64,000 bases of DNA from a virus (Duplodnaviria; Caudoviricetes). Location: IMG/VR virus record IMGVR_UViG_3300010365_001248, positions 32,001-96,000 of that record. One strand, written 5' to 3'. A program made the position numbers and the translations under genes. Shown piece after piece: positions 3,832 through 64,000 of the stretch. Under the pieces are notes generated by a model. It was not told where the DNA came from and ran no database searches. It worked only from the letters and a program-made list of their open reading frames with translations. How positions within the stretch are numbered: position 1 is the first letter of the stretch; every line of letters begins with the position of its first letter.

Positions 3832-4686
3832 ATGACAGCAATTGCAGAAGCATTTAAAAAAGCTAATGAATCCAATTTAAACAAGTATGAATGGAGAACC
3901 TCTAAAGATGAGAATGGTGTATATAAAACTTATAAATTAATGGAATGTTCTTTTGAACAACTTCATAGTTTTTATAAACATTGTCAATCTATGCTAGAAA
4001 ATGAGGAATCTACACACTTAGGAAGAAGTGTTATTATGAATATGATTACTTCTCAAATTTCTAAAAGTTATGCTGAACTTGTAGTTAGAATGATGGTTGG
4101 AGTAGGTAAATCTTATAATACTCGATTGGAATTATATCAAGCTTTAAAACATTTTATAGAATTAAATCCTAATGTATTTGTTGATGCTGAAAGTAAAAAG
4201 AATTTTAGTATAGTAAATGCAATTTCTGGACTTGATTCTAAATTCACATCTGCTAATTTAGAAGATGTTATGAATGCTTGCCTATCTTCTTTAGGAAAAA
4301 TTCAATTAACTAAAATTTCTTTAAATTTTATTCTTTCTTTGGGAATTAATTTAAATAAAGAATCTCAAAAAGTAGTAGAATCTTGGATACGAACTAATAT
4401 TAATCTCCCTAAAGACACTAAACTAAAATTTAAAACAAATGGAATTACTAAAGAAGAACTCTATGATATTATCAAAATGAAAAGTGATTCTACTAATTTT
4501 GGTAAGTTTGTATTTGCTAAAGATTACAATGATTTATCATCAAGTCAACTTAATCTTTTAGTAACTAAATTATTACCAGCTCTTTATAATAAATGTGGTT
4601 ATCAGAAATTTCTTTGGGCAAAAAAGATGCAAGAAATTCAAGATGTCGGTTTAGCTAAGGGTTGGAATGTTGCAAATGAAATTTAA
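3832..4686 (+). CDS. hypothetical protein
   Basis: 284 aa ORF; TAATG overlap with the helicase start. Confidence 0.75.
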   Translation: MTAIAEAFKKANESNLNKYEWRTSKDENGVYKTYKLMECSFEQLHSFYKHCQSMLENEESTHLGRSVIMNMITSQISKSYAELVVRMMVGVGKSYNTRLELYQALKHFIELNPNVFVDAESKKNFSIVNAISGLDSKFTSANLEDVMNACLSSLGKIQLTKISLNFILSLGINLNKESQKVVESWIRTNINLPKDTKLKFKTNGITKEELYDIIKMKSDSTNFGKFVFAKDYNDLSSSQLNLLVTKLLPALYNKCGYQKFLWAKKMQEIQDVGLAKGWNVANEI

Positions 4687-6475
4687 TGACTAGGGATGAA
4701 CGTCAACAACTCGTAATTAAACACTGGATTGCTACAAAAGGAAAAGGAACTTGTGAACTTCCTACTGGGTTGTATTATTTTAAATATATGAAAAAATTTA
4801 TTGATTATAAAAATATAGTAATGAATATTCTAAAGAAAATGGATTAAATTTAATAAAATATCTTTATAATAATAGTTCTATCTACTTAGAAAGAAAATAT
4901 AATTTATTTAAATTTTTTCAAAAAGGCAGCCGTTCTGTAAAGGAATTTACAGAATTATTATCGGGCAATATCGGGGGAAAGCCTATATAGGAAAATCCCG
5001 AGATAAATTTAGAAATTAAAAAATCTAAATCATTGTACAGCGTAGAAGGTGAAACTTATGAAAAATAAATGTAAATATCAAATAAAATTAAAAGACTTTC
5101 CTTATTATTGTTGTAATGCACAAAAGTATTGTCCAGCAATAATATGTCCTTTAAATTATAAAGATTGTGAAGTTTATAAGAATATAATCCTTCCAAGAGT
5201 GTCCGATATCCCAACTGAAATAAGTGGATAAACAGGTACGCGGAGCTTATAAGTAATTATAAGAAGTATGGGATAAAAAGCCCATGCGGTAACAAAACTG
5301 TTGGTAAAACTAGAGTAGCTTTAAAAATAATTGCTTTATTACAAGCAAAAAAGCCTCTAATTTCAATTAAAATACTTGTTCCGACTAATACATTAAAACT
5401 TCAATGGGAAAAAGAAATAGAGGCTTTTAAATTAAAAAAAGATACTATTTCTGTTGAAGTTATGATGGGTTCTTCCCAAAAGCAATCTGAATGTGATTTA
5501 TTAATTTTAGATGAATGTCATCGTTGTCTTTCAGAACATTTATACGCAGCTTTTACTAATATTAAATTTAGATTTGTATTAGGATTAACTGCAACGCTTG
5601 AACGTCTAGATGGTAGACATTTATTAATAGATCAATATGCTCCAATTTGTGATAGTGTTACTATTCAAGAAGCCCTACAAGAAGGGTGGCTTGCTCCATA
5701 TAAAGAATATCTTGTATTAATTGATGTAGATGATATTCAAGTATTTAAAGATTTAAATAAACAATTTACTTCAGTATTTGAATTTTTTAATATGGATTTT
5801 AATTTAGCTATGTCATGTGTAGGTAAAAAAGGTTATTATAATCGTATAAAATTAAGAGATGAAATGCTGCCAAATAATGCTACTCAAAAACAAAAATCAG
5901 ATACTCTTAAACTGATTCAATTAAAAGTAGCTCAATTTATGAGAATTCTTCAAAAAAGAAAATCATTTATAGCAAATCATCCTAAAAAGATTGAAATAGC
6001 TAAACGAATAATAGCAGCACGTTCTAATAAAAAAATTATTACTTTTTGTAAAACAGTTAAAATGGCTGAAGCTATATCAGATAAATATGTTTATACAGGA
6101 GATAAAAGTGTCAAAAAGAATAAACAAATTTTAGAGGAATTTAATAAACAAACTTCTGGAGTATTATCTACAAGTAAAATGGCTCAAGAGGGGCTTGATT
6201 GTCCTGATTTATCTGTAGGTATTTGTTTAGATGTAGATTCAAGTAAAATTAAAGCTAAACAAATATTAGGAAGGGTAATTCGTAAATATAAAGACAAACA
6301 AGCTGAATTTTTTACTATAGTAATTAATAATTGTGTTGAAGTGCAATGGTGGCAAAAAAGTCACACAGGTGCTCCAAATACTATTAAAATTGATGAAGAA
6401 GGTTTAGATCAAGTTTTGAAAGGAGAAACTCCTAGAGAAATTAAAAATCTTCAAAATTATCAATTTAGATGGTGA
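4686..6475 (+). CDS. SF2 DNA helicase (DEAD/DEAH-like), split by 1 group I intron (exons 4686-4770, 5301-6475; about 419 aa)
   Basis: The spliced product gives Walker A PTGFGKT; also DECH, GLTAT, EGLDCP and QILGRVIR motifs. Confidence 0.9.
4771..5300 (+). mobile_element. group I intron (530 nt), variant P7, AT-rich L1 insert and internal Cys-rich ORF
   Basis: P1 ggt|tg pairs with cagcc near 4927; GCGTA/TACGC; 3' end GGTAACAAAACTG. Confidence 0.88.
5058..5231 (+). CDS. intron-embedded small Cys-rich ORF (57 aa from ATG 5058)
   Basis: MKNKCKYQ...YYCCNAQKYCPAIICPLNYKDCEVYK; six Cys, in a loop that is short in sibling introns. Confidence 0.45.
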   Translation: MKNKCKYQIKLKDFPYYCCNAQKYCPAIICPLNYKDCEVYKNIILPRVSDIPTEISG

Positions 6476-6538
6476 TTTGAAAAGTTTTAAATTAGTATTA
6501 TGTATTAAACCCTGAAAAGGGTAAAATGCATAAAAAGA

Positions 6539-7174
6539 ATGAAATTAATTCAATTCTTTTTATGTATGTTTATTAATTTAGAAACTGAACTCCTTTGCTA
6601 TAATCAATATAATCTATCTCCTAATGAATTGCTATTTCTTCGAATGTTACTTCTTTGTCAAACAGAAGATCCTGAAGAAAAGAAATATTTTATAACTTAT
6701 ATGCAATTACCTGAAAGTTGTAAAGGTAATATACGTGAAATGTTAGTTATCTTACAGGCTAAAGGTTATATTCTTAAAAATTATAAAATTCCTGAAAAAG
6801 GTCAACAATTTGATCCTGTAAATATTCCTTTTAATCAAAAAATGGTTAATAAACTTTATAAAGCTTCTTATCAAATGGGAAAAGAGCTTTATGATATTTA
6901 TCCATTGAGTTGTGTAGTAAATGAGTGTGAGTATAAATTAAAAAGAATTTCTAATAAATTTGATACTCTAGAAGATGCTTATCGTTATTATGGACAAGCA
7001 ATTCGTAATGATAATATGACTCATGAACAAATCATTAAATTAATTAAATGGGGTAAAGATAATGGGTATCAATTTACTACTTTAGGTGCATTTTTAGCAG
7101 ATCATGATTGGAATAATATATTGTCAATGCAAAAGGAAAGTATATTAAATAATTCTTATATGAAAATGGTGTAA
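6539..7174 (+). CDS. hypothetical protein upstream of DnaB (possible initiator/loader)
   Basis: 211 aa ORF (start may be 6566); function inferred only from position. Confidence 0.6.
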   Translation: MKLIQFFLCMFINLETELLCYNQYNLSPNELLFLRMLLLCQTEDPEEKKYFITYMQLPESCKGNIREMLVILQAKGYILKNYKIPEKGQQFDPVNIPFNQKMVNKLYKASYQMGKELYDIYPLSCVVNECEYKLKRISNKFDTLEDAYRYYGQAIRNDNMTHEQIIKLIKWGKDNGYQFTTLGAFLADHDWNNILSMQKESILNNSYMKMV

Positions 7175-27961: not shown

Positions 27962-28213
27962 ATGAAAAATATAACCAATTTATCTAATACTTATAATAAT
28001 GTAATTAAATTAGCAGATGATCTTTCAAAATTTATTAAAGATTATCAACCACAAAATGCTAATGATTACTTTGATAAAGACTTAATGGTGACTCAACTTA
28101 ATATATTACACAGTCTTGCTTGTACTTTAGCTATGCGTATTAATATTAATAGTGTACAAGAAGAACCTGAAGAGGCACCTATTATGGATAATGAGCCTTC
28201 TGTAAATGATTAA
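27962..28213 (+). CDS. hypothetical protein
   Basis: 83 aa ORF. Confidence 0.55.
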   Translation: MKNITNLSNTYNNVIKLADDLSKFIKDYQPQNANDYFDKDLMVTQLNILHSLACTLAMRININSVQEEPEEAPIMDNEPSVND

Positions 28214-29054
28214 AAAAGTAATTTTTACAGACCATTCTAATGATATACTAGTAAAATATTTTCATGATATTAATAAATATCCTATTCTATCAAATGATGA
28301 AATTAATCAACTTATTCCGTCGGCACAAAAAGGTAATGAACAATCAATTGATTTAATATGTAAATCAGTACTCCGTTTTGTTGTAACTATTGCAAAACAG
28401 TTACAATATAAAGGAGTACCTTTAATGGATTTAATATCAGAAGGTAATTATGGTATTTTAACTGCTATTAAAAAATATAAAGTAGAAAAAGAAATACCTT
28501 TTATTTACTATGCTATTCATTGGATTAAACAAAAGATGTATATTGCTATTTATGGAACTAATAAATCTATACGTATTACTTTTGTACAAAATATGCGTTT
28601 AAATAAGATTATTAAAGTTTCAGCTAAATTTATGCAAGAACATCAACGTGAACCTTCTGCTGAAGAATTAGAAGAATTAACTGGATTTCCTTTAAAAGAA
28701 ATTAAGATTTTATTACCTTATTTAGATAAAGTCAATTCTTTAGATACTATAATTGAATCTAATGATTCTGAAACAACTTTAGGAGAATTATTACCAGGAG
28801 ATTATATTGAACAAGATACTGATTTACATAAAGAATATGTAAATAAAAAACTTTATAAAGTTTTGAATAAATTAACTTTAAGAGAAAAAGCTGTTATTTG
28901 TTTAATATATGGAATACAATGTCAACAAATGTATTTACCTGATATTGCTAAATTATTTGGAGTTTGTGAAGAACGCATTAGGCAAATTAAAGAAAAAGCT
29001 TTATACAGATTGAAAAAATATAAACGTTATTTTATCGAAATAAATTATGCGTAA
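28206..29054 (+). CDS. sigma70-family (RpoD/SigA-like) RNA polymerase sigma factor
   Basis: Region 2 LRFVVTIAK...DLISEGNYG...YAIHWIKQ; region 3 REPSAEEL; region 4 ERIRQIKEKAL. Confidence 0.9.
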   Translation: MIKKVIFTDHSNDILVKYFHDINKYPILSNDEINQLIPSAQKGNEQSIDLICKSVLRFVVTIAKQLQYKGVPLMDLISEGNYGILTAIKKYKVEKEIPFIYYAIHWIKQKMYIAIYGTNKSIRITFVQNMRLNKIIKVSAKFMQEHQREPSAEELEELTGFPLKEIKILLPYLDKVNSLDTIIESNDSETTLGELLPGDYIEQDTDLHKEYVNKKLYKVLNKLTLREKAVICLIYGIQCQQMYLPDIAKLFGVCEERIRQIKEKALYRLKKYKRYFIEINYA

Positions 29055-45000: not shown

Positions 45001-47072
45001 CCAGCTTCATGTAATAGCATATACATTTCAATTAATTCCAAATTTCCACGTACTGCTTGTAGCATTAAAGAATCAGGATTAGTGTCCTCTTCAATATTTT
45101 TAGCAAATTGAAAATTACAATAGTTTCTATCAGAACTAGTTCCTTTTACATTCTAAAAAGGATTAATATTATCAATTTTTACTGTCTCAATAATTTTTTG
45201 AGGATTTCCTTTTTCATCTACAATTGTAGATTCAAAAACTAGAATATTATAAACTCTGAGGAGCTATTGAGCATTTTCAGAAAGTGAAACTTTCCAATTA
45301 CTATTACAGTATTTATTTAATTTAGCTATATTCTTTTCTCCAAAAATACCTAATTTAGGTTCTTCTAGAATACTCATATAAGATTTTTTCTCAATAGCAT
45401 TATGAATTTCACGTAATAATATCTAGCTTAATTCTTTAGCTGACTATATAATAGCTAATTTTTCACTTTTTACTTTAGCAATAAATTTAGATTTAGCGTT
45501 AGGAGTTGAGGCAGATATAGTTACACGAATTCCTCCAGCTTCATAATGAAAATTACCTGATTCATTTGGTTCAATTTCTTTAGTATGATTTTCAGTTAAT
45601 TCATTAATAATATCCGCATCTGCAATATGTTGATCATCTTGTAAAGATAAATTAAATAATAATTTCATTCTTTCCTCATGATCATTAATTAAATTAGGAT
45701 TTAATTCTTCAGCAGGTTGTTCATAAGGTATAATAATATTAATTTCTTTTAAGACAGTAGGGTTACTAGCATCAATTGTAATATCTCTAGTAATAGATCC
45801 TCCTTCTTCATTATATTTAAATTTAAATTTAGAATTATCTAGTCCGTAGATATTTTCTACTTCAATTGGAACAATAAGATCCTATATAGTTTTATTCTAT
45901 AATAAAGCCCTATTAGTTTGTAGCATTCTACCATAAAGTCCTTCCTGATAAATAAAAGTTAATCTTTTAGCAGAATCATATTTATTATAAGATTTATTAC
46001 CTACTTTAAAATCTACTATTTTTAAATCTCCCTATGGAGTAGTAATAAGTAAGTCAATACGTCCAGCTATAGTAGTAATTTTATCATTTTGAATAGTCAT
46101 TTCTACATCAGGACCTAAATCAGCACAAATAGGTACTTCTATATTATAATCTAACTAATTACCTGCTTTTTTATCTTCAGCAGTTAAATATTTATTTTCA
46201 AATTCTTCACGGAGTTTTTTAGCTTGTTCTATGAAAAATTTAATTTGATCATCATTTAATAAAGTAGAATCAATATAACCTTGAGAGGCAGGATTTCTAA
46301 AATATTCTAAAATAGATTTATTTATACTACCAGGATAAGTTTCCCATAATTCATATTGATATTGAAATTTAGAATGAGAAGACAATTTTCTAAAATAAGT
46401 AGCATAAATATTATGAATAGCAATACCTAATTTAGCCTAATATTCCCATCTCTATTTAATTCTTTCAATTATTCTAGCCTATAAAGAATTAGCAGGTAAT
46501 TTAGTTATATCTACATGACCAGTTTCATTATTAAACCATCTTTTATCTAAATCAATAGTTTTTAAATTTTTACCTAAATCTGAGGGATCTATCTATTCTC
46601 CATTTAATTCATGATAAACCATAGCTTCTTCTTCAGTAAAACCTTCATTTTCTTTAGATACACTACCATCTGCAAATAATCTTCTCAAAGTATTTTTTTC
46701 AGACCATGTATTTATACGTTGTGTCCAATAAGCATTTTCGTCAAAATAAGGAGAAATTACTTCCCCATTAAATTTTCTATATAAACCACAAAATTTAAGT
46801 GTACCAACAGCATAATTAGCTTCGTAAGTATCATAGATTTCACCATCTACACCTAAATTATTTTTACCTATATTAGAATCTTTTAATCTTTTTAAAGTAG
46901 AAGCTTTTTCACTAACCTATCTTAAAGCTTGATTAATAGTATTTTGAGCATCAGTTAAAGAAAAAACATAATCTCCTAACTCTTTATAATTAGGGAATTT
47001 AAATAATAAAAATTTATTTAAATCATTTACATCCCCTATAAGAGTATTATTAAAATAATATAAACAACTCAT
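42045..47072 (-). CDS. giant virion/ejected protein with a PD-(D/E)XK nuclease-like domain (about 1675 aa, TAG=Gln)
   Basis: All six track fragments share one frame and end at TAG; starts MSC, stops TAA; AGRIDLL...IVDFK near 46000-46080. I did not check every codon for TAA/TGA. Confidence 0.8.
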
Positions 47073-47073
47073 A

Positions 47074-48645
47074 TTAACAAATTTCTTTTAATTGATTAGA
47101 TTTAAATAAATTTTCTTTTAAATTAGCAAATGCTCTCTAATTAGCTGAATTAATTAAAATATCTTCAGCATTAATAGGTTGTGAATTTAACATTTTAGCT
47201 AAAGTATTAAAAGAATAATTTAAAGGACTTAGCTATTTAAACGTTTCAGCACTTTCTGTACCATTAATAATAGTATCTAAAACATTATAAATACTAAATT
47301 GTAATTCATATAAATCTCTTTGTTTTAGTGATTGTATTGAAGAATTTCTTCCAGTTAAATAATTAGCTAATTCATGAACAAATACTTCTTCAAATACATC
47401 TTCCTAAGATCTATTTTCATAATTTTTAGCAATTTCTTGAAAAGATGGGTATTCAGAAACTTGCTTTATAAGGTCATAATATTTTTCAGGTTGAATAGTT
47501 CTATAATGACCTAGTAATATATGTAATAATTCATGAGTCTAAGAATCCTCTGTAGCTAAATCTGTATTTATATATATTTGTCCATTATAAATAAAAGCTT
47601 TAGCATTTTGAATATGAGGAATTCTAGATAATTCTTCGTCTGTCTAAATTAAATTAGAAGTTACTGAAACAATTTTAACTCCTAAAGTATCTCGAATTTT
47701 ATTTAATAAATCTAATATAATAGGAGGTTCTACTATTTCTTCAAAAGAATTTTGAATTTTAGATATATCTTCTTTTGATACTATAGAAGATTGTCCTATA
47801 TAAGGTTTTTGATAAATAGGAATAATATTATTTTGATATAAATTATCTCCTACTTTTTCTCCTTTAATTATATTAGTATTATTTAAATCAAAATAACATG
47901 CCCCTGAGGGTAATAATTGTTTAAATAATTGTATTAATTCATTTTGTTGAGAATTAGTAAATTCTCCTTTAAATTGATAACTATATAATCCTAAATCTTT
48001 AGTTTTAATTACTTCTAAATAATTTTCTGAATCTATAGCTATTTTTATATTTTTATTATTATTATTTAAGCCTTCTTTAACAAAAAAGCTATTTGTAGAA
48101 ATTTTATTAAATTTATTAACATTAATAAAATTAGATAAAGCAGAACATAAAGTAGTATAAACTTTATTAGGATTATTAAAAATAATTCCCTTTTTAATAT
48201 GATTTATATATTCTTCTTCATCAATACTAATTTCTCCATTATTAATATTTAAAAAAGATAAATTATTTAACCTATCTGTATTATTATTTAAATTTTCTGA
48301 AAATCTATTAACTCTTGGTTTAATTTTTATTAAAGAATCTTTACTATCAATAGGTATAATCTAAATAATTCTATCATTAAAATCTGTATTTAATTTTACT
48401 TGTGCTTCTTTTATATCAGTAGTATTAGTAAAACTCAATAAATCATAATTAGAAACCTAATTATCCTAAATATTTAAAATATTTTTTAAATAATTAGTGG
48501 AATTAGCTCCAGGTAATTCTCTTAATGTAGGTTTTCTTCCTATTGTTTTTACAAAGTAATCATAATAAAAATTAAGAACAGTCGGATTTAATCCCGACTG
48601 TTCTTTAATTTTATCATAATAAGCATCTATTCTACACGCTTTCAT
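47074..48645 (-). CDS. zincin metallopeptidase-domain virion protein (about 523 aa, TAG=Gln)
   Basis: IYIN...HELLH (HExxH)...EEVFV; starts MKAC, ends EIC*; absent from the track because of TAGs. Confidence 0.78.
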
Positions 48646-51600
48646 TATTCACATTTTCCAGTTAAAGTTGAATCATCTAGTTCTTTAGTTGTAATAAATT
48701 CATAAAGAATAACCTAGCCATCTGTTATTTCTGCTTTTATAAATTCATTTAAAACTTCTTTTACGGAATTTATATCTAAAGAAGGATTTATTTTATTAAT
48801 TAACGTTGCATAAGCTTCTATAGTTTTACCTGTTAATTTATTTTTAATTGTCTCACGTTTTTCAACTTTATCATTTTTTATTGTAATAATCAATTGTGAA
48901 GGATCATTATCATCAATTTTAATATAATTCTTTAATAATTTAATTTCAGGAACATATAAAATATTTAATGGCAAAGTATTTCCCAATCCATTAATAGATG
49001 TAGCTTCTTGAAATCCTGTAGGCATTTTATAAGTTGAAAACCAACTATCATCTTCTCCTGGCTCTACTCCATAAATTTCTTCTTGAGCTTCTATATTTTC
49101 AATATCATTAGATTGATTTATAGAATTACTTTTTTCAATTAAATGAATTGTATTAGTATTAGTATCTAATTGTCTAAAGATAGTTCCCTAAGAATCATTT
49201 ATAGATTTCTAAACTATAGGAATTAAAAAATATTTTAAATCTGTATCAAATAATTTAATATAATTTGCAATTAAAGTATTGCCTGACAGATTTAAATTTT
49301 TAGAATTAGGATCTATATTTTGTAAAGCACTTTTCTAAATTAAATTATTTTCTGATGCCTAATGTTTAATATAATCTTGAGCCAAACTGCCATCTTTAGT
49401 TAATTGATTAGTTACTAATCTTGATAAAGAAACTTTTGAAACTTGGTTACCAGAAGTTAATAAAGAATATAAATAAAAAATATCTGCTAAATTTAAAGAC
49501 TAAATATTTTCATTTTTACGCTAAATAAAATGATCATCAGTTACTTGATTTAAGTTTAAATAGTGCTTTATCACAGTATCATAAATGCGTCTATCTATTT
49601 CTGCTGTAGGATTTAAATCTATATCCAAAGAATAAGGTAAAATAGCTTGTCCTGATAAAGTATAACTATTAGATTTAACTAGTAATTTATCAATAAATTG
49701 ATTATTATATAGATTAGAAGTTTCTTTAACTGTATCAAGTTGCCAATCAGGAATTAAATTATGAACTAAAGCTATAAAATTTAATCTTCCATAATTAGTT
49801 TTTAAACTAATCTATTCTTCATTAACAAAATGTTTAGAATTTCCATTTTCATCAAATCCTTTAAAATTTTTAGGTATTCTAATAATAAAATTATTTTTTT
49901 CTAAATAAGAATTTATACTATAAGATTCTAATAGTGCTTGTTGTAATTTTAGCATATTATTTCTTATTTTTTTATCTTTTATTTTATATTGAATTATTAA
50001 AGGTCTTGTTACTTTATTATAAACTATATTCTATAAAAGTAATTGTGTAGCATTAGTTTGAGCTAATAAAGATTCCATATAAGCCTAATAATGAGGTAAT
50101 ACAGATACTGGTAATAGAATATTAAAAAATGTTTTAATTTTATTTAATAAATTTAAACAATTCAATTTATATTTAGGATCTTTGCAATAAGAATCTAAAT
50201 TTAATCTAGCACCACTATCAGGATTAGGTAATCCATTTTCATCAAAAGTTAAATAATTAAACTAAAAATCAATTTTATCTTTATTTTTAATATTTTGAAC
50301 CCAAGCAGTAATTTCTAATTTATCTAAAATTTCTGTAGAATAATTTAATTTAAACTAATTAATAAAAATTTCTTCAAAATTATTTATTTGAGTCTAAACA
50401 TCTTCAAATTGTGTTTTTAATTCTTTATTTATTAATAATCTACTTCCTCTAGAAAATTCATCAGCAATACGTGTAATTTGATTAAAAGCCTAAATTGGAT
50501 CATAAGCTCCTTTTAACATATCTATTACATTTGGAGTAGAATATTTAGTAATACAAGCACTAATTCTATCTAAATACATATCCCAAACCTAAGCTGTTAA
50601 AACTAAAGCTTTAGTTTTCTAAGTATTATAAAATTGCTATAAATCTGTATTATTCCCTTTCTTATTATTTACTATAAAAGAATTAGATTCTCCTTGAGAA
50701 ATTTCATTTATTAAATAATTTTCTCTATTAAAATTAATAATATGTTTTAAATCCCTATATAAAGCACGTCTTCTATCTTTATAAGGTATATCATATTGTT
50801 TAAGAGGATTATTTAAAAAACTATCAACTTCTGTAATTATATTTAAATCATCTATCTAATTAATATAAGAATTATACCAAATTTGCATTGAAGCAATTAA
50901 TTGCTATTTTTGTTTTTCATTAATAGATGAAAGAGAAATTTCATTTATTTCACAATAAGCATTAATTTGATTTTTTAAATCTAAATTAAATTGTTGTTTT
51001 TTATAATAATTTTCGTTTTTCTCATCATTTTGAAAATGTTCTTCAATTTTTTCTATAAATTTTTCAATAGGATGAGTATTAAAAATAGTGTCTTTAATAT
51101 TTTCTTCTCCTGTTAATTCTTTATATTTTTCTAATAATTTTTGACCTAAATATTGTTGAACAGCTTCATAAGGTTGAATTATCTTTCTACCTATAACTCT
51201 ATCTTCTTTAAATTGATTTTTAATATAAGTATCAATTAAATCAAACTACTAAACAGCTTGAACTGTAGTAGTTAATGCTTTTTTATGTGAAAAATAATCA
51301 TTCTTTCTTAGCTTAGTAATTTCTTGACCATAATTACTATTAATAATAGTTTCAAGGGTATCAAAAGAAAGACCTATAGATGCACCTGCTAAATATAAAT
51401 CAATTACTTCAGTACCTGCATTAATTTTACCTAAAATAAGTTCTTTAGCATTATCTGTTGCTAATGATAGCAGAGCTGAAATAACTAGTGCTGCATTAGG
51501 ATTATAACGTTGTTGTTCTACAAGTACTTTTAAAGTTTCATCTATATTATACTATTCTTCTGCAGTTATTTGTAAATATTTATAAGAATTATCTCCAAAT

Positions 51601-54600
51601 GTAAATTTAGGATCTACTAACCTAGAATCAAAAGCATTACTAACTACTCTTGCTGTAGTATTACCTACTTTACCATTATAAATAGGATTTTCTACTAATA
51701 TTGTATTACCATTTATATCTTTATCTAACCATGGTAATCCTGCTAGTAACATTTCTTTTAATTTTTCATCTCCTGATTCTAATACAGCTTGAAAAGCTCC
51801 TATTAAAGCAAAATAGTGTTTTTCTGCTACAGCACAAAGGGCAATACCGTCTTTACCTTCCATACAAATACGAATACCTAAAGGAATACTCATACTATTT
51901 CCAGTAGTATTATACCAGTCTTTCTGGGCTTGTTTAGATTTATTACCTTTAGCTTTAAATGGACTAACAATATTATCAACTGAAGCAGTAGATTCTGACA
52001 TATGACTAGTATCTATTACTACATTGTATTCATTGTTAGTTTCAAAATTTTTAGCGGCACATTCTTTATTATCTTTAGATAATTTATGATAATACTCGTA
52101 GTGTTTAGAAAGTAATTTTACAATATTTTCATCAACTCCAATATCTGCTTTAACATAAGGCATATCTTCTGTAAATAAATCCAAAATTTTAGCAAGGGTT
52201 TTAATATTTTTACTTGAATTTAAATTAAATCTACGAGTTTCAATATTATAAAAAAGACCATCTACAGTTTCTGTTCTTCCTTCTAGCATTAAATTTTTAA
52301 TATCTTCCCAAGCAATACCTTTTTCATCATTAATAGTAATTTCTTTTATTTCCGGTTTAAAAGGTAATAAAGTAGAAGCTTCATCAAAATCTAAATTATA
52401 ATAAGGAGAATGAGTCTAAAAAATTCCTTGTTTATTTAAGGTAAATGTTTTTAATGAAACTGTATCAATATCCAAGTCAGATCCTTGTAAATAGAATTGA
52501 TAAACACTAACCATAGCATTATTAGTATCAGACTCAATAAAATCAGCTACACGCATACCCATTACTGATTGTAAACATTGTGCAGGAATACGGGCAGCTA
52601 TAATATTTAAAACTTTATCAAAACTTTGGTGTAATAATTTACCTAAATGTTTATAATATCTTTTTAAAGATTCAAGTTCATCAATTAAATAAGGGTCATT
52701 ATTATTATCACGTAAATAATCTAATATAGCAATATTAGATTCATAATCATCTACTAAAAATTGATTAGTACCACTTTTAGTAATAGCATTATTAAATAAT
52801 TGCCAATTTAGTGATTCTTCTGAAATATCAAAATCAACTGAATTTTCAGTATTTAAAGTAGCTACAAAATGTGGAATAGATTCAATATAAAATTGATAAG
52901 GAGAGAAACCATCTATTGCTTTCTTCTTTTGAAGAAATTGCCCTAAATCATTATGATCAGATCCATTTTTTATAGGTATTTTAGTACCATTTTTATCAAT
53001 TATATAAGCAGGATCTGTAACTATTATAATACAATCTAAAATAGAATCATAATAAACCTCATCATTTGGACTAAATAATTTATACTAATCATTATTAATA
53101 TTAGAATAAGCTATTGGATTTCCATCAAGATCAGTATCATTATTATATTTTTTATAACGATCTGTGTCTTGTAAATAAGTTAAATAAGAATTATTCTATC
53201 TAGTTTTAATATAAATCTACTGATTATTTTTTCTTTTTAAACATATATCCCAAGTAGAATAAATTTTTTCCTTACCAGTATTTTCATCAAAAATAGGTAT
53301 ATTTTGTAATCTACAATTAGCATTAGCTAGTAATTTTTTATAAAAATAATTTTGGTCAGCTAATATTTCACCTACAGTATCATCTCCATCTAAACCTAAA
53401 GCACTTTTAAAAGTTTTAGGCATAATTACACCACAAACTTTATTCTTTATAGAATCTTTATTTATACGTACTTGAGTATAAGATTGAGTAGGAACATTAG
53501 AGTCAGAAAAAGAATAATCACTAACTACATATACATCTGTAATCTAATCACTTAAAGTACTAAATTTAGATAAAGCATGTAAATCATCTTGATGTGTTTT
53601 ATAATGAAATCTTTGACAAATATCTATTAAAGTATTTTGTATAGATTCTTTTATATTAGTTTTTTTCTTTTCTAATTTAATTATTAATTCTTCTAATTCA
53701 ACTTTTTCTTCGGCAGTTTTTCTTTTATTTCTTTTTAATTTTTCTATTTGTTGTATTTCTGCCCATGTTAAATTATTAATTAAAGCTTCTATTTGTTTAT
53801 TTATATTGTCTTCTCCATTATTCCAATTATCTAAATCTAATCGTAAAAAATTATAAAGAACTTGTTCTCCTAATTTACGTTCAGATAAATTTTCTATGTC
53901 CTCAGATAATTCTTCTTTATAATTTAATTCTGTTTGACAATAGAATTTAAAATAGTCTTTAAATTTATCATTATAACTATTAATTAAAGGAGTATAAATT
54001 AATAATGTAGTTTCTTTATCTTTTTTCTTACTTAATTGACAATATAACTATAAAGTCATTAGATCAGTTAATTCAAATTTCTTTCCTTCAGTATCTTCAA
54101 AAGAAACATTCTAAAACTCTAAATCTAATCCTTTAGAATATAATTTTTCTACTGTAACTCCTTCAAGTGTACTTAAAGCTTTAATTACTTGTTGACCAAT
54201 AAAATGCTTTTTCTTTTCATATAATTCATAATGAGGTAATCCTACATTTGCCCAGAAAGTTAATTCATTTCCTACTATAGGAGAAATATCTAATAATTTA
54301 TTAACTTCCGTAGCTTCCATGCCCTGATTTTTAAAAATGTTATAAAATTGTTCAATACTATTAGGATCAGTAATAGTAATTTTATAATTTAAACCTATAT
54401 TAACATCTTGAATATCTACAGGTTCAGATAAATTTTCTAGAATATTTTTAATATAACTTTGAGTATTTGTTGCAGGATAATTTTCTACTTTAATTGCTGG
54501 TAATTGATTAGAACGGACTATTTTCCATTGTATTTGATCTGAAGTATTTGCTATTTGTTCAGCATAATTAACTTCTATATTAAAAGTTCCTTTAAAATCC

Positions 54601-57600
54601 GCTAAAAAATTATAAAGGGCAGCTCGTGGGGCTGCTTTATATCTTTCATCTTGACATAATTGATCAAAATACTGTTCAATTAATTCATTATGCTTAACTG
54701 GAATTTTATAATATTTAACAATTTCATCAGTTGGGTTAATTACTGCTAAATTACCAGATACTTTTAATTTAATACCATTTTTAGTTAAAGTAGAACCTAA
54801 AATAGAATATACTTTCTTGAAAATTTGTGTATTATCAAGTGGAATATTTTCTTCTAATTCTTTTAAATTATCTTTAGTTAAATAACCTTTAACTTTAAAA
54901 TCATTAAGAATACCTTTAGCTAAAATTCCTAATAAAGTATTTTCTTCTTGATCAAAATTTTTAGCTAAATAATCACATAAAGAAGTAAATATAGCTATTG
55001 ACATATTTTCAGGAGCTAATACTGTCAAATTTTTATCTCTAAAAGCTTTTGTTGCTAAACGAGATAAAGTACCTAAAGCTCTATAAACTCCTAAAGCCTA
55101 TTTAGGTGTATATCCTTGAGAAATACAAGCACTAGTTACCTGAGTCATATTAGAAAGATGACTATCATCAGCATGATGTCCTTTATCCAACTGAGGTCCT
55201 AAAACATCAGCTGTCTGATAATAAGGATTATAATAAGAAGATTCAATAAAAGAACCATCTGAATTTTGAATATTTTTAAATAAAACATCTGCTGACATCA
55301 AATTAGTATGAGTCATTTTTACAGCTCCTTCAGTTAAAAGCATAAAAATATCAGACATTAAAAGAGGTTGATAGTAATTAGTTTTATACATTTTAGTATT
55401 ATCTACTAAAGTATTATCATTTAATTCTTTATCTAAATTTAAAGAAACTAATTTACTAACTTGAATTTCATATAATTTATCCTATGACCAATTAGAATAT
55501 TGTAATTTGTCATCAATTAATTCACAACTATTCCAACCTCCCAAAGCCATATATAATTCAAAATTATCTGAAATTGTTAATTTTATAGGAGTAGGTTCAT
55601 CTGTTAATAAAGATCCTTTTTCATCACATTCATATTCATCAAATACATATTTTTTATTTATAGAATCATATTCTTTATATATTCTAGCATAATATTTATT
55701 ATTTACTTTATAGTAAAACGGTGTTGCTAAAGATATTAAAAAAGAACCATCAATATCTGATTCAAATAATGTATCGCCGGGATCATAAAAAGTTTCATCT
55801 TGATTTCTCCAACGATGTTTTAACATATTAAAAAGCATTCGTTGATACATTTCATCTTTACGAACTTTTTCATTAGTTAAAGTAAAGTTAGCAGTTTTAT
55901 TATTACTTCCAATACCTAATCGAGTATCGTATAAAGCAGCAAAAAGTTTCATAGTATCTATACTAACTTTAGCTGCTCCTAAACTTTCATTAATTGCTTT
56001 AGCACAAGTATAAGTAATTAGTGTACAACCATCCATTCCTTTCATTACTCCTTCAGCTCCATTAGCTGAAAAACCTAAAGAAGAAATATCTTCTACACAA
56101 GCGACTTTAAATTTATTAGGTATACCTTTAATAATACTAGTATCTAATCGTTTTTCTTGAGCAGTATTATTATTATTTCTTTTCTATTGAGTTCTATCCA
56201 GAAAACCTAATAGAATTTCATGATAAGCAATTTTACCTAAATCCGTTAACTTATTATTTTCAACTAGCCATGGATTCTTTTCTTTAAATTTTTCTTCAGA
56301 AGGGGCACCTGTAGGTTTATGAGCTAAATTAGATCCTACTTGAGAAATAATATATTCTTGAGAAATTAAAGTATTAAAAGCATTAAATTTAGCTAATAAA
56401 GGATTTAATTGAAATTCTATATCCTCAGAAGAATATAATGCTAATGGATTTTCTAATAATTCTTTTCTATTAGGATATTTTATAGGATCCATCTAATATA
56501 TAGCATTTTCTAAATCACTATATTGAGTAAGAATTTTAGAACAATATTCTCCATTTTTATTCCAAAAACTCATTTTAGCAATAGGAGTTAAATAAGGATT
56601 TTTATGATTACTATTACATAAAAAGGCTAAATTATATGATTTAATTTGTATACCATCAATTAAAGGATTATTTGAATTTTTTTCTTCTTTTTTTACTTCA
56701 TAATTTTCTAGTTTAATATTTTTCTTTTTTATATAATAAACCTTCTCTTGCTTGTCATCTTTATTAGGATAAAAAGAAGAATTAATATTAGTTACTTCCC
56801 AATAATCTTCTTTTTTAGCTCCTTTAGGTAATTTTTCAATTAAATCATAATTATATTTATCATTACCTAGTAAATTTTCTAAAGTTTTTAATAAATAACC
56901 TTTTTCTGAAGTTTCTTTAAAAGGAATTCTAATTCCTTCTGTAAGTAATCTATGGGCAAATAAACGATCATTTATTTCAGCATGTTTATTATAAATATCA
57001 TATTTAGAAAATTTATTTATTTCAGTTTGAACTAATGTTTGCTATTGAGCTTTAATATTCTAAAAAACATCATTTACTTCAATAATAGGAGTTGTTCTTT
57101 TAGGATTAGTATTATAATCCTCTATTAATTTTTTATTAGTAGAATAAAAATTCCAAATATCCTATAATTTAGGCTTATTTATAACAGGAAGATTTAATAA
57201 ATTACAATCGGTTTTATATTTATTTATTAAATTTTTTTGTAAAATAGTATAAAACCTTTTTAAATCATTAAAATACTAAGTTTTAATTTGTTCTGATGAA
57301 GCTTCTAATATATTTTGTCCACTAAAAAGTTTTGCAGCAGTATTTAAAAATAATTGATAAAATGCTGTTTTATCAGCATTTACTACACAAGGTCCTCCTA
57401 TTCTTTTTCCATTAGTAGTAGAATAATTATTAGAATCAAAAGTGCTAAAACCTCCTATAAATTCAGTATAAAAAGTTCCTAAAAACATATCAGGTAATGA
57501 AACTTGTTTCCATTCTTCATAAGGATTAAATCCTAACTATGCCCCTCTAATAGTTTTAATAGAAAAATTAGCATCAGGATTTAAAATAGTAAACTTAGAA

Positions 57601-59846
57601 GTAGGTACTTCTTCAGGATTTATTTGTCCTTCAGCTTGATAAATCATTGGAGTAGAAGCTAAATTTCCTAAATTAGTAGAACTAATTTGTGCACCATTAG
57701 CATCTTTATATACATTTAATTTTTCAGTTCCTTTAATAGCAGTAACTAAAGTAGCTATATTATATAATTCTGATAATCTATTAGTTGTAATAGAAGATTT
57801 ATAGGATTGTCTAAAGCTTTGTGAAAAATTTAATTTTGAAAAAGTTATTTTATCTCTAAAATGAACTTGAGCACTTAAAATATCAAAGCATATTTTATTT
57901 AAATCATAAATATTACTTATACTAGATTCAAAAGCATCTCTATATAAAGAATTATTATAATGAATTCCAGTTAATAAATCAACTAATTTACCAAAAGGTT
58001 CAGTAATATATTTCATTTGATTTAAAGAATAATTTTCATTATTAAAATTTTTTAATTTATCATTATGAATATTAAATAAAACAAATCCTTTATTATTTGT
58101 TATTTGAAAATAAAAGTCTTCACCTTCAATAGAAGATGTATCGTTTATATCATAATCTTTATATTTTTTAGCATCTTTTATTTTTAAAGAAATGTTTATT
58201 CCATATTTTTGATTTACAGCATCACACCATTCTTTAAAAGATTCAGCATTAGGATCCTAGTTACTTTGATTTCTTTCATTAATTTGTGTTTCTAAATTAC
58301 GTCTATCAGCATAAATATAACTAGCTTTAGATTCTCTTTGCATTAAAGCTCCTTCTTCTGTTTTTAATTCTACTGGTTCAATAGTTCCTGTAGACAAAAT
58401 ATTTTGTATTATAGCTGATAAATAATTTTGTGAAAAACTATTTTCTGATTTCCAAGTTGAACTCTACATAGAATGTTCAGCACCAAATAAATTTTTATAA
58501 ACTGAATATATCAAATTAAATTTATTTTTACTTATATTATGAGTTAATTCAGTAAATCTATCTTGTTGTGCTAAGTTTAATAAATTATTATAAGTAAATT
58601 TTCCCGATTGCTGATCATATAATAAAGTCTGTAAATAATACTTTAAATAAAAATGTGGATTTTTATTCATAGCATTAAATAAATAAGATCGACTTACTAA
58701 AATAGAATCATAATAAACCTCATCATTTGGATTTCCATCAAGATCAGTATCATTATTATATTTTTTATAACGATTTCTTTTAAGATCATCTAATAATATC
58801 TAGTCTTGTCGAGATTTATTTTCAGGTAAACCTTTTAAATGATTTATTACAGTATCAGTAAGTTTAAAATCAATATTTTTTAATAATGACATATAATTAA
58901 TAGCTTCTGCCCAAGAAGATGTGGTAAAAGTTATATTAGTTGGAGTATCTCCATTATATATCATAAAGTTTTCCAAAAATAATTTTATTAATTTTTCAGT
59001 ATTCTATTCTAAGTCAATAAATTTACTATCATCATAATCTTTTCGTAATTTTATTTCTGTAGAATAAGAATATTTTGAAATATCCTCATTATCAAAATTA
59101 TTTTTAAATTTAGAATCAATTTTAATAAATTCTTTAAAATCTTTTTCTATAAAATTATCTAAGTAGGTTAAAGTAAATCTATTAGTAAATTCAGTAAAAA
59201 AATTTGAATTATTTTCTGCTTCTTTTGTATTTATAAATTTAGATTCAAATTGAGTTGCTAAGGACTAATCTTGAATTAATTTTATAAATATATTTTCATC
59301 TAAAGCTTTTGAAGATAATTCTTGATAATATTGAAAAATATTTTTTTGAAGTTCTTCAGTACTAGTAATAAAATGATCATTTTCTTTATCCCAAATTAAT
59401 TTTTGAAATAAAGTATCTTTTACTTTTTTGATATATTCACTAGCTACTAAACCTTGTCCTATAGTATCATAGATAAAAGAAGAAGAGGAAAGGTTTTCCT
59501 CCTCTTCTACAATAGTTATTTTTTCTGGATTATTTATAATTTGATCAAGTTCTTTAAAAAAAGTATTAAATTTTGCTGGAAATTCTTGCATCTAATCTTG
59601 TAAAGCATTTTTTAATTTTTCAATAAAAAGAGTATTTTCCTAGTTTAATGTATAATTATAATGTTGATTTTTACAAAACTTTAAAAATTCTTTATAAAAA
59701 ATCTAAGAAAAATTATTAAGTTTATTTGTTAAGTATTTTGAATATTTATCATTAGCATAATAATCAAAAAATAAATTACAAAAAGATTGAAAATCCTTTA
59801 AAAATTGTGGATTTTCAAATAGACTTGAACATTTTTGTGTTGCCAT
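48645..59846 (-). CDS. virion two-barrel DNA-dependent RNA polymerase (about 3733 aa, TAG=Gln)
   Basis: Eleven track fragments in one frame; RIPAQ motif and catalytic GSDLDID at 52464-52484; GMDG near 56030. Confidence 0.88.
58697..58774. repeat. 78 nt exact composite copy of 53036-53070 plus 53119-53161
   Basis: Direct sequence comparison; the join falls at a TTGGA microhomology. Confidence 0.9.
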
Positions 59847-59849
59847 ATG

Positions 59850-62800
59850 TTATTTTATTATTATATTACAGCTTTTTTGCCATCCTTCTAATATATCTGA
59901 CGTCTTTGCTATTTCTTGTAAATCCTAATCTGTATAAGGAATTTTTCCTTCTTCATCTTTATAAATTTCAGAATTTATAGAGAAAGAATTTTCTTTTATT
60001 AAATACCTATCGAATATAAAATTTTCTAAACCACTTTTTACAATATCATTGTAAGTAGTATTTTCATCTACTATATAAAAATAATTAAATGTACCAACCT
60101 AAAGACCTGGAACTTCATAGATGGTTCCTATTTCTAACGTTTCGGACTGAAATTTATTTACTTCTATTTTTTGTATGTTTCCTGAAAAATTTTTTGGTTT
60201 AGATTTTAATTGAATACGTAAATTTTTTCCTACTGGAGCAGGATTTATTAATTGTTTATATAATTTAACTTTCTCATAACTTGAGCATCGTCGTATATGT
60301 TCTAGAGTATATTCTATATTATAAGTATTACTGCCTGATTTATAACTTGTAATCTAACCTTCTTTATTTACTTCTACATTTGTTGCAGAATTAAGAATTT
60401 GTTCTACATAATATTGTCCATTAAATTTATATAAAATTAATGAATTTTCTGCTAATGTTTTTAAATAATCCACAATAAATTCATTATTATTTTTATTTTC
60501 AGATAAATTATAAAATAATTCATACATTTCGTCGGTTATTTCCTATAAAGGGTCAAGTTTTATACAGTTAGATTTAAAAAATTCTTTACCTTTTGCTATT
60601 TTTTCTTCTTTTGTTAAAGATTTATTACCATCCTCTGAAGGAGAAGATTCTTCCTAATCAGAAATTTGTTCTATTTTTAATTTAGCAGGATTCCAAAGTT
60701 TATTTAATAAATCTTTCAATGCACTAGAATTAAAAGTAGGTCTTTGTAAATGTCCTCTAATTATATATTGATCCCAAGGCATTAAAGATTCTAATACATC
60801 AGAATCATTAGTATGTACTATTTCAGCTTGAGGGATAATATCAGGTAAATCTTCATTTTCTAAAGCATTTTGAATTTTAATTAAAGTCTATTCTATAGCT
60901 GCATTTAATTCAGCTTTTTCTTGTGGTGATAAACCTGTTTCTATTGGAGTTAATAAATTTAATAAAGTTTTATTAAAAATAGTATAAAAACGAGAAGTAC
61001 CTGAATTAATAGCAGTAAAATAATTCTATGAACCTATCTAATTAGTTAAAAAAGAAATAACTTCTGTCCCATATTTATTTGAAGTTAAACCTTGTCTTCT
61101 AGGTTCAATATTATTCTTTTTAACTAGTTTCTAAAACCTTAAAAATTGTTTTATTGCTTCATCAAGATTTATATCTGTTGCCTTAGAATTTTCTAAATGT
61201 CTTTTTAAATTTTTAATTAAAGGATGATTTTCATCATAATTAATAATATTTTTAAATATATAATCTGTTATATACCATGATGTAGCATTATTTCCCCAAT
61301 GTTGTTCAATATCTTCTGGATGTTTCTATTTTTCTTCTAAATAAGCTAAATAATCCTTAATATTATTATTAGGTTGTTCCGTTAATCCATACCATAATAC
61401 TGAATTAGGAGACGATTTTAAACCATTTATAGTTAAATTATTTTTACTTAATTCATCAAAACTATATAGTATAAAAGAAGTTCCTTGAGGTATAATAGTT
61501 TCACCATTATCATCGGTAATATCATATTTAGCAATATAAACTTTATCTCCTATATAAATTCCATCTTCTTTTGTAGCAACTTCTTTATAATCTTTTAAAG
61601 AACGCTCTACAGGATTCCACTAAGTATTCTAAATAGATTGAATATATTCTGCATTTCTAAAACCAGCAGCTATATTTAAATTTAAATCAAAAGCTTGATT
61701 CTATTCATAAGGAATTGATTTTAAATTATAATAGTAAGTTTTATGAGAAAATATTTGACATAGTACTGTAAACTAAGTTAAAAAGTCTTTAACTAAAGGA
61801 TCTAAATTTTCTTCTATTTTACTTTGTAAAAAAGGATAAAATGTTGGATCTTTACCACTAAATATATCATATATTTCTCTAGCTTTTTCTTGACTAGGAG
61901 GAAGGTCAGGATTTAATTTAGGATATTTAGCAATAATATCTTGAACATACTATTTATTTTTATATGTTTTAAGTAAAGTTAATGGATTAATTAAAGCTCC
62001 TAAATTAATTTCTAATAGCATTTTTTGTTTATTTTTATTTGTTTTTTCTTTACTAAATAAACGAAATACTACATGGGTTCCAGGAGCTTCAAAATTATCC
62101 GTACCTTTCTATAAAGTTACTTTATCTTCCCTAAACCATACACTATTTTTAAATTCTTCTTTATTAGTTCTAAATTCAGGATGAGTTAAACCTATACTTA
62201 AAGAATGAATTTCAGGAAAATTATTGCCTCCAATTATAGTCTATAATCTAGAAACATCAATAGGAATATTTTGTAATAAACAATAATATAAATAATTTTG
62301 TACGTTTTGTAAAACTTTTTCTGCCTCTTCTTTATTAGTTTTAAAAGCAGGATTTAATTTAATTAATCCATAATAATTGTCTATTCTTTGTGAATTTGAA
62401 TTAAATTCATCAGGATAAGGAAAATTAGTATTAAATCCATAAAATTGTAATACAGATCCAGGAGCTTTAGAATCAGGAACTGTTTCATCATTATTAGTAA
62501 AAGAAGAAGGTTCATTTTCAGAAGGTTCTTCAGCTGGTATATGGGTAGCTAAAAAATCATTAAATGAATATTCTGTTTCATCTACTTTTACTTTAATCTA
62601 ATATTGTCCATTAATAGGTTGAATAGAAAAATTATCTGCACTTGTAGTAACAGTATTATTATTTAAATCTTTCCATTCTTGATCAATTTTAAAAGAATTT
62701 AAAAACTCTTCAACTTCTTCTTTAGAAGTAAATCCTTCTGGATTTTTTTCTGGAGGAGTTTGAGTTGTTCCTTTTAAAGATTCATCTTTATATATTGGCT

Positions 62801-64000
62801 AAAAATGTTCTTTACCTAATTCAGTTTTATTTTCTAAATCAGAATATTGATCTATACGTGCCTAATTAGTTTTTTGAATAAATGCTTCTGATAATGAAGG
62901 GAATTTTTTATAAGAATCCATTTTAAAAGAATTAATATTACGCCAGCTTAATAAAGCTGCTTTTTTAGCTCTACTAAAAGAAGTATATAATTCTTTTTTA
63001 TCTTCGTAATATTCAGTTAAATCTATAACATAATCAGCTTCATTGCCCTAACTTTCATTTAAAGTTTTAATAGAAATATTTTTATTTCCTGCTGTTAAAT
63101 TTTTAATTTTGTCAAATTCAGTTTTATCAGCAATAATCATTATAGATTCTTCAGCATTTCTTATTTTTAATAATTTATTTAATTCTGTTTCAAAATTTCT
63201 GGGCTAAAAATATTTTATTCCTGCTATTTCAGTATCAGATTCATAATAATTAAATCCATTAAAAGTTTTTATATCATTTATATCATTAATTTTTTGAAAT
63301 TCATTTAAAGCATTTTCCATTAAATTATTCTCTGCACGAACTACTATAGAAATTTTTTCAGTAGAATAAAATTGTTTAGCTTTAGAAGTACATTTAAATT
63401 CTGGAGTTTCACATATAGTATTTATCTAATCAAAATCTCCTAAACCTATTATAATAAAACCATTTGCTAAAGCTGCTCTTTCTAATAATCGTAAATCAAT
63501 TTCAGTATATTTACTAATTTCATCTATAAATATAATTTTAGGACAGTTAGTAATTATGTTAGGTTTAATAATTTCTTTTAAATTTAAATTTTTGTCTGTT
63601 ATGTCAAATAATTTATTTGTCTATTCTTCAGTTAAAATACCTTCAGTTGGATAAGAGTCATAATCATTATAAAATAATTTTAATAAATCATTTTTTTCAT
63701 AGGGTTTTACATTTTGACCTATTTTTTCAGTAACCTATTTAGCATTTTCTTCAGTAATATGTGCAAAATATGAAGAAGAAATTAAAATAGGATTACTTTT
63801 TTTCATTAAATCAATAATTTGTTTTACACAAGCCATAGTTTTGCCAACTCCTGGAAAACCTTGCATAAGAACAATATTTTTATAACCAAAAAAAAGTTTA
63901 TAATCTTTTAATTCTGTAGCATCAGGATTATTTATATTAATTTTTTCTATGCAAACTTCATTAATTAAATCACAAGCCTCATTAATAAATTTTGAATTAA
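59850..64000 (-). CDS. giant virion protein with SF1 helicase domain (5'-partial, TAG=Gln)
   Basis: GFPGVGKT, IFIDE, GDFD*I (motif III), S*GNE (motif V) and LYTSFSRAK (motif VI). Confidence 0.85.

Follow-up and report, generated by a model that had tools for sequence, protein, structure and literature searches.

No phages are more abundant in the human gut than crassviruses. They pack and inject roughly 0.7 to 1 MDa of polymerase-associated protein, and a 2026 paper on phage N4 still calls their ejection proteins an open problem (PMC13434306). Virions of crAss001 hold three giant proteins, gp47, gp49 and gp50, and have disulfides between subunits of the portal vertex and of the tail (PMC10172136); the homologous proteins of phi14:2 (gp078, gp076 and gp077, respectively) are annotated as structural proteins confirmed by mass spectrometry (MS), and gp077 is the two-barrel RNA polymerase (RNAP) of PDB entry 6VR4_A. 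Here, we describe four abutting genes, A to D, in IMG/VR virus record IMGVR_UViG_3300010365_001248 (163.9 kb), read from a window of 64,000 nt (positions 32,001 to 96,000 of that record; gene coordinates are those of the window unless stated). Every terminus at which one of the four encoded proteins faces the next carries a cysteine, such pairs recur in relatives and in cultured crassviruses, and the proteins are probably joined end to end by disulfides.

A structural parallel is found in cyanopodophage A4 (Anabaena phage A-4L), a T7-like phage of a different family that has no RNAP, where cryo-electron microscopy (cryo-EM) shows a disulfide between Cys1715 of gp27 and Cys5 of gp26 in the pre-ejectosome (PNAS 2025, PMC12002296). 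In the A-4L genome these are the only cysteines of the two proteins (gp27, 1717 amino acids [aa], ending in NPCQF; gp26, 1114 aa, starting MSKHC). Like the proteins at crassvirus junctions, gp27 and gp26 are giant, Cys-poor internal virion proteins encoded by consecutive genes, with an identical sequence signature (Cys at −2 and at +5). Unlike the arrangement described below, the A4 bond joins two proteins only, and the paper presents it as a detail that stabilises a folded pentameric ring, with no mention of a chain or a general rule; A4 gp28 and gp29 lack such a link. A phmmer search of A4 gp26 to gp29 against A to D and the cultured crassvirus proteins gave no match at E ≤ 1; because the proteins do not appear homologous, the likeness is an analogy and not family membership. 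In N4-like phages (Schitoviridae), a giant virion polymerase is likewise packaged and ejected through a short tail with helpers, the ejection proteins gp51 and gp52; that polymerase is unrelated to the crassvirus enzyme and is a single chain, and the paper mentions neither disulfide nor cysteine (PMC13434306). Terminal cysteines also go unmentioned in the crAss001 virion paper (PMC10172136), a structure preprint on the virion RNAP (vRNAP) and an epsilon-group genome paper. The crAss001 study includes reduced and non-reduced MS data, in which the terminal peptides considered here are not reported (PMC10172136). A full-text literature search combining Crassvirales with cysteine and ejection returned nothing relevant, and no paper describing a terminal disulfide for crassviruses was found.

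Under the standard bacterial code (table 11), the region from 42 to 64 kb of the window lacks long open reading frames (ORFs), and reading TGA as Trp leaves the frames closed. With TAG read as Gln, the region resolves into four abutting minus-strand genes. This code is supported by 104 in-frame TAG codons in A to D and by a tRNA with anticodon CUA at 157152-157241 of the genome (window coordinate about 125152-125241, outside the window). Use of TAG as Gln extends over the minus-strand late block (42045-64000), and the plus-strand genes (1-41900) are almost free of TAG. The four genes, each an ORF with TAG read as Gln, are as follows.

59850-64000, minus strand: gene A, SF1-helicase-like giant protein, the part within the window (whole gene 59850-68477, 2875 aa)
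48645-59846, minus strand: gene B, virion-type RNAP, 3733 aa
47074-48645, minus strand: gene C, HExxH (zincin-like) protein, 523 aa
42045-47072, minus strand: gene D, last link, 1675 aa

The genes abut or overlap, as the sequence-only reading of this stretch had stated: a 3-nt spacer separates A from B, B and C share TAATG, and a 1-nt spacer separates C from D. The start codons are the first possible ones downstream of an in-frame stop, and gene B is uninterrupted.

All six facing termini of A to D carry a Cys and both outer ends lack one. A begins MEDKQYD, without Cys, and ends in KSCNIIIK; B begins MATQKC and ends in GKCE; C begins MKAC and ends in EIC; D begins MSC and ends, without Cys, in YVPSED. 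The earlier reading had given exactly these termini and a Cys-free last end, to which the Cys-free outer N terminus of A can now be added; its helicase protein was read correctly at the C terminus and extends past the window. The six codons, checked by coordinate, are all TGT.

59868-59870, minus strand: Cys codon near the C terminus of A (sixth residue from the end), TGT
59829-59831, minus strand: Cys6 codon of B, proposed partner of the C-terminal Cys of A, TGT
48651-48653, minus strand: Cys3732 codon of B (second residue from the end), TGT
48634-48636, minus strand: Cys4 codon of C, TGT
47077-47079, minus strand: Cys523 codon of C (last residue), TGT
47064-47066, minus strand: Cys3 codon of D, TGT

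Outside the block, the genome has 122 genes, of which 2 encode a Cys at positions 2 to 7 and 18 a Cys within the last 10 residues; no adjacent pair among them has both. From this baseline, three complete pairs would arise by chance with a probability of roughly 1e-8. The earlier description of Cys as scarce in these proteins holds only mildly (0.42 to 0.88% in the block vs 1.1 to 1.4% elsewhere in the genome).

The block is highly divergent. Megablast against GenBank phages and a PHROGs search with A to D found no match, and tblastn of C and D against phages returned three unannotated records only. Protein A matches Pfam AAA_19, Viral_helicase1 and UvrD_C_2 at residues 1534-1843. Protein B has a DxDxD motif (GSDLDID) at residue 2455; phmmer of B against PDB gave no match, nor did a hidden Markov model of its relatives against cultured crassvirus proteins, but hhalign confined to the catalytic region matched crAss001 gp50, phi14:2 gp077 and p-crAssphage gp44 (probability 95.7%, E 1e-8). 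Protein D carries a PD-(D/E)XK nuclease domain at residues 213-403, and residues 1155-1583 of its family match phi14:2 gp076, crAss001 gp49, Fpv1 gp34 and cr1_1 gp077 (94.8%, E 5e-8, hhalign). Because the RNAP catalytic region and the C-terminal part of D match cultured crassviruses in this way, A to D are, by homology, the RNAP cargo module of a very divergent crAss-like (epsilon-type, TAG-recoded) phage. Relatives of the block lie on 150- to 197-kb contigs, the size class of the "epsilon" group.

Protein C has no Pfam or PHROG match, and an hhalign comparison of its family with HExxH regions from cultured phages scored below significance. Across 14 homologues, no variation occurs at H371, E372, H375, E419, E420 and C523, and very little at C4. 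An AlphaFold2 model of C is of moderate confidence (predicted local distance difference test [pLDDT] 65), and Foldseek of this model against PDB found nothing meaningful. A long C-terminal helix runs into a low-confidence tail, and the N-terminal tail is likewise of low confidence (residues 1-6 and 519-523 below pLDDT 50); the termini of C are thus predicted to be flexible. Four homologues of 693 to 752 aa (P0011, P0012, P0014 and P0015) have an inserted domain (precomputed Pfam PF18760) between the N-terminal region and HExxH; their called starts lack MxxC and are probably truncated gene calls.

Conservation was followed in C homologues drawn from a 5.8-billion-protein collection and in an alignment-based scan of IMG/VR, which gave 80 loci where a single-protein locus search had found nothing; clustering of protein D at 50% identity places these loci in about 24 groups. 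Related loci were read in code 11, with TAG as Gln or with TGA as Trp; one, L030, was too fragmented to score. Homologues of C keep an M-x-(x)-C start and an E-x-C-(D/E) end down to about 30% identity, with the C523 column invariant. Relatives of B start MxxC or MxxxC and end in C or in C plus one to three residues, A-like C termini have a Cys 2 to 10 residues from the end, and D relatives begin M-x-C or M-x-x-C in all ~24 lineages. A Cys near the upstream C terminus and one at positions 3 to 7 of the next protein, present at the three window junctions, are kept in relatives, and every true junction is two-sided for Cys. Three loci illustrate the range.

L004: ..ANPC / MLTC and ..EYCE / MACK
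L031 (one extra gene split): ..YEC / MSAKNC, ..GCE / MAC and ..YCE / MAKC
L068: ..HDC / MTAKC and ..ECN / MQLGSNC

In the zincin proteins of L035 and L049 (804 to 809 aa), Cys occurs only at position 3 and as the last residue. No alignment over the junction was obtained between the 333- and 549-aa proteins of L031 and the 809-aa protein of L035. Apparent exceptions in L017 and L022 are start miscalls, as GTG starts give (M)ANC and (M)ANNC, and in L024 the zincin ORF was initially missed because of one in-frame TAG. The C terminus of D is Cys-free in relatives except in one lineage, where a Cys lies at −9 and D is followed by no partner gene; a partner gene downstream of D was looked for in L017 and L022, and there is none.

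Some relatives also have breaks in the RNAP gene without Cys, for example at the catalytic motif (..LQGSD / Y..). LAGLIDADG ORFs were found in such breaks (L035, 4568-5266; L074, 7053-7961; E 1e-26 to 1e-32). Because LAGLIDADG homing-endonuclease ORFs lie within them, the breaks are not protein termini and appear to be mobile insertions inside one gene; an intron is suggested by these ORFs only, and an Rfam search at gathering thresholds on two loci with Cys-less breaks scored no intron model, group I included. The inserts measure roughly 1 to 1.3 kb (L035:4240-5331, exactly inside the catalytic motif LQGSD/Y; L074:6974-8248). Across the gene sequences, the terminal-Cys rule is thus "both or neither". 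Comparison with relatives, which the sequence-only reading had named as its own test, found the pairs kept at every true junction, and the cultured crassviruses gave the same result.

The cultured set comprised crassviruses of three families and one Flavobacterium phage. In phi14:2, the 5,398 residues of gp078, gp077 and gp076 (1797, 2180 and 1421 aa) include just four Cys, each of which lies at a facing terminus: gp078 ends in one, gp077 has one at position 3 and one at 2179, and gp076 has one at position 3. In crAss001, gp47 (2341 aa) has a single Cys at 2339, gp50 (2412 aa) has three, at 5, 1334 and 2404, and gp49 (1349 aa) has a single one at 5, so that four of the 5 Cys in 6,102 residues are terminal. 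Cys content in these two phages is 1.35% in other genes vs 0.07 to 0.08% in the cargo block. In crAss001, gp47 is encoded on the opposite strand to gp50 and gp49; the terminal-Cys signal acts at the protein level, independent of gene adjacency or strand.

Further pairs occur in p-crAssphage (gp45, ..FSCM; gp44, MSCGN) and in cr1_1 (Suoliviridae; gp076, ..IHCIKS; gp077, MSIIC). In crAss002, the only Cys of gp32 is at 2019 of 2020, and gp32 is paired with gp33 (L086:9088-21825), whose true start probably lies 32 codons downstream of the annotated one; Met33 gives MSCTPS.., which matches the MSCGN of p-crAssphage gp44 and agrees with the terminal-Cys rule. Flavobacterium phage Fpv1, which lies outside the order recognised by the International Committee on Taxonomy of Viruses, has a 4401-aa gp33 with its only Cys at 4400, followed by gp34, which starts MAC. 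The terminal-Cys pattern is thereby confirmed and general, with relatives across the order following it.

The window block shares with phi14:2 gp078-gp077-gp076 and crAss001 gp47-gp50-gp49 a homologous RNAP catalytic region, a homologous last protein and the same terminal-Cys rule. It differs in having four links instead of three, a separate 523-aa HExxH protein after the RNAP, a helicase-like first protein, an unpurged set of internal Cys and TAG=Gln recoding. The cargo proteins of phi14:2 and crAss001 are likewise giant, and are MS-detected in virions. The place of the HExxH domain in the chain shifts among lineages (compared: L083, L084, L086 and L088). In crAss001 gp47, p-crAssphage gp45 and crAss002 gp32 it lies near the C terminus of the first protein; in Fpv1 gp33 it forms the C-terminal end of the RNAP fusion; phi14:2 gp076, the last protein, has it near its N terminus; and in the window it is a separate gene after the RNAP (47074-48645). 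In the lineages compared, any protein ending with the HExxH domain also ends in Cys.

Because the pairs are conserved, absent at endonuclease breaks and independent of adjacency and strand, an end-to-end link between proteins would be their natural reading. Disulfide is the favoured chemistry, since the same signature in A4 is a disulfide seen by cryo-EM and crAss001 virions contain inter-subunit disulfides; for the crassvirus bond itself this is an argument by analogy. The proposal extends the A4-type terminal disulfide to a multi-link chain that includes the virion RNAP. A, B, C and D would be translated as four separate proteins, and in the particle each C-terminal tail would dock on the N terminus of the next protein. 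Once the particle is beyond cellular reductants, the two terminal cysteines would form an inter-chain disulfide, so that about 8,800 residues would follow one another from N to C terminus as A-S-S-B-S-S-C-S-S-D, a linear "virtual polyprotein". Such a tether could keep the subunits together at a 1:1:1:1 ratio during packaging. Because no link would be more than a few residues from a chain end, the proteins could pass through the narrow tail in succession, pulled like one polypeptide. Reduction in the host cytoplasm would afterwards break the links and release the polymerase with its partners. Docking, threading and reductive release are steps that we infer. The single giant polyproteins of other phages (p-crAssphage gp44, Fpv1 gp33) carry the same domains on one N-to-C thread, the topology that a disulfide chain would mimic; they differ in having a peptide bond instead of a disulfide, so that release would need proteolysis, not reduction. 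The lack of Cys in the extrapolated junction region of gp44 speaks for the chain. If mispairing is selected against, a near-absence of internal Cys, as seen in phi14:2, crAss001, Fpv1 and A4, is to be expected.

On balance, we consider a head-to-tail disulfide chain of cargo proteins, packaged together, threaded and released on reduction, to be the probable explanation, if by no wide measure. Rather more tentatively, crass-like phages and at least one unrelated podophage may share a general redox-gated ejection mechanism in which terminal disulfides join up to four separately translated giant cargo proteins, the virion RNAP among them. In that broader reading, offered with the same reserve, the bonds would serve fixed-ratio packaging and one-strand threading, and the sequence signature would also mark true protein boundaries. 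If the proposal is true, a covalent chain would explain how split genes retain the behaviour of an ancestral polyprotein, how stoichiometry and the order of ejection are set, and how the proteins separate after entry.

Several points weigh against the chain. The end-to-end linkage put forward in the sequence-only reading is supported in part, by the conserved two-sided pairs and by a structural analogue in A4; no crassvirus has so far shown a disulfide or any other bond joining these proteins, and the crassvirus cargo proteins lack homology to those of A4. Packaging of A to D follows only from distant homology to the MS-detected phi14:2 and crAss001 proteins. Internal Cys are not purged in this phage (A has 14 Cys in all, B 33), mispairing is possible, and the weak purge in this AT-rich, TAG-recoded lineage is unexplained. 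The host cytoplasm is reducing and the gut anoxic, and when the bonds would form is unexplained. A family search detected no thioredoxin or glutaredoxin in the genome; it also found no Erv-type oxidase, though the Erv control was silent in every genome, which makes that search uninformative. Comparison of fused with split forms is approximate: the L068 fusion (RNAP plus zincin) has one Cys (2800) in a shortened junction region of ~90 residues, and in p-crAssphage gp44, a fusion of gp50-like and gp49-like parts, the junction region is only extrapolated (~2360-2600, without Cys; nearest Cys at 2220 and 3105). In addition, p-crAssphage gp47 (L084:1588-4161, 857 aa) has a single Cys at 856/857, and the next protein, gp46 (4152-6725, 857 aa), has none. 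The orphan C-terminal Cys of p-crAssphage gp47 is not present in crAss002 gp31.

As the sequence-only reading had also suggested, facing terminal cysteines could instead share a metal ion such as Zn or Fe, perhaps together with further ligands. Each junction offers two thiols, C has an invariant Glu two residues before its last Cys (E521-x-C523), and a metal bridge could form in a reducing cytoplasm. Each terminus has one Cys only, however, most junctions have no conserved His, Cys or Asp beside it, and phi14:2 and crAss001 have no other Cys near the termini to add as ligands. As the near-total purge of internal Cys better fits avoidance of disulfide scrambling and the sole structure with the signature (A4) shows a disulfide, we regard a metal bridge as unlikely. 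Marginally less likely again are disulfides of another kind, either homodimers (C-to-C, N-to-N) or links to portal, capsid or tail proteins instead of a chain. These would agree with the use of disulfides by tail and portal-vertex proteins of crAss001 and with the unpaired C-terminal Cys of p-crAssphage gp47, but would not predict the both-or-neither rule, the new pair at the extra split of L031 or the Cys-free outer ends. Intramolecular N-to-C cyclisation is ruled out, as crAss001 gp47 and gp49 and phi14:2 gp078 and gp076 have one Cys each.

Other chemistry or regulation at the termini (a cysteine switch blocking the zinc of the zincin, a protease recognition or cleavage signal, acylation, or thioester ligation to a true peptide bond) is improbable. 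A zincin-like HExxH domain is always within the module, and the vRNAP structure preprint proposes cleavage of fused polyproteins and a possible role of the protease in activating the RNAP; both points would suit such chemistry. A terminal Cys is nevertheless also found on proteins without HExxH (phi14:2 gp078 and gp077; A, B and D of the window), which rules out a cysteine switch. None of these roles explains the symmetry of the pairs. A split intein with trans-splicing is likewise ruled out: no Hint or intein domain was found in A to D, and there is no room for intein halves because the Cys lie 1 to 6 residues from the ends. An mRNA-level signal (translational coupling, or ribosome hopping of the T4 gene 60 kind), suggested by the abutting or overlapping genes and by the TGT flanking each stop-start, and chance or composition together retain a barely perceptible likelihood. 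Ribosome hopping, translational coupling and any other nucleotide motif are excluded because crAss001 gp47 keeps its sole Cys C-terminally though on the other strand from gp50 and gp49; the pattern moreover spans three genetic codes and 30% identity, and the baseline is far too low for chance.

Terminal cysteines are also of use in annotation. They pick true starts, among them GTG in L017 and L022 and Met33 within crAss002 gp33, tell real protein boundaries from intron-split exons, and flag members of the injected set in uncultured phages. A few kilobases from the cargo block of p-crAssphage lie genes for a putative thioredoxin, gp39 (L084:26978-27256), and a truncated one, gp37 (27976-28245).

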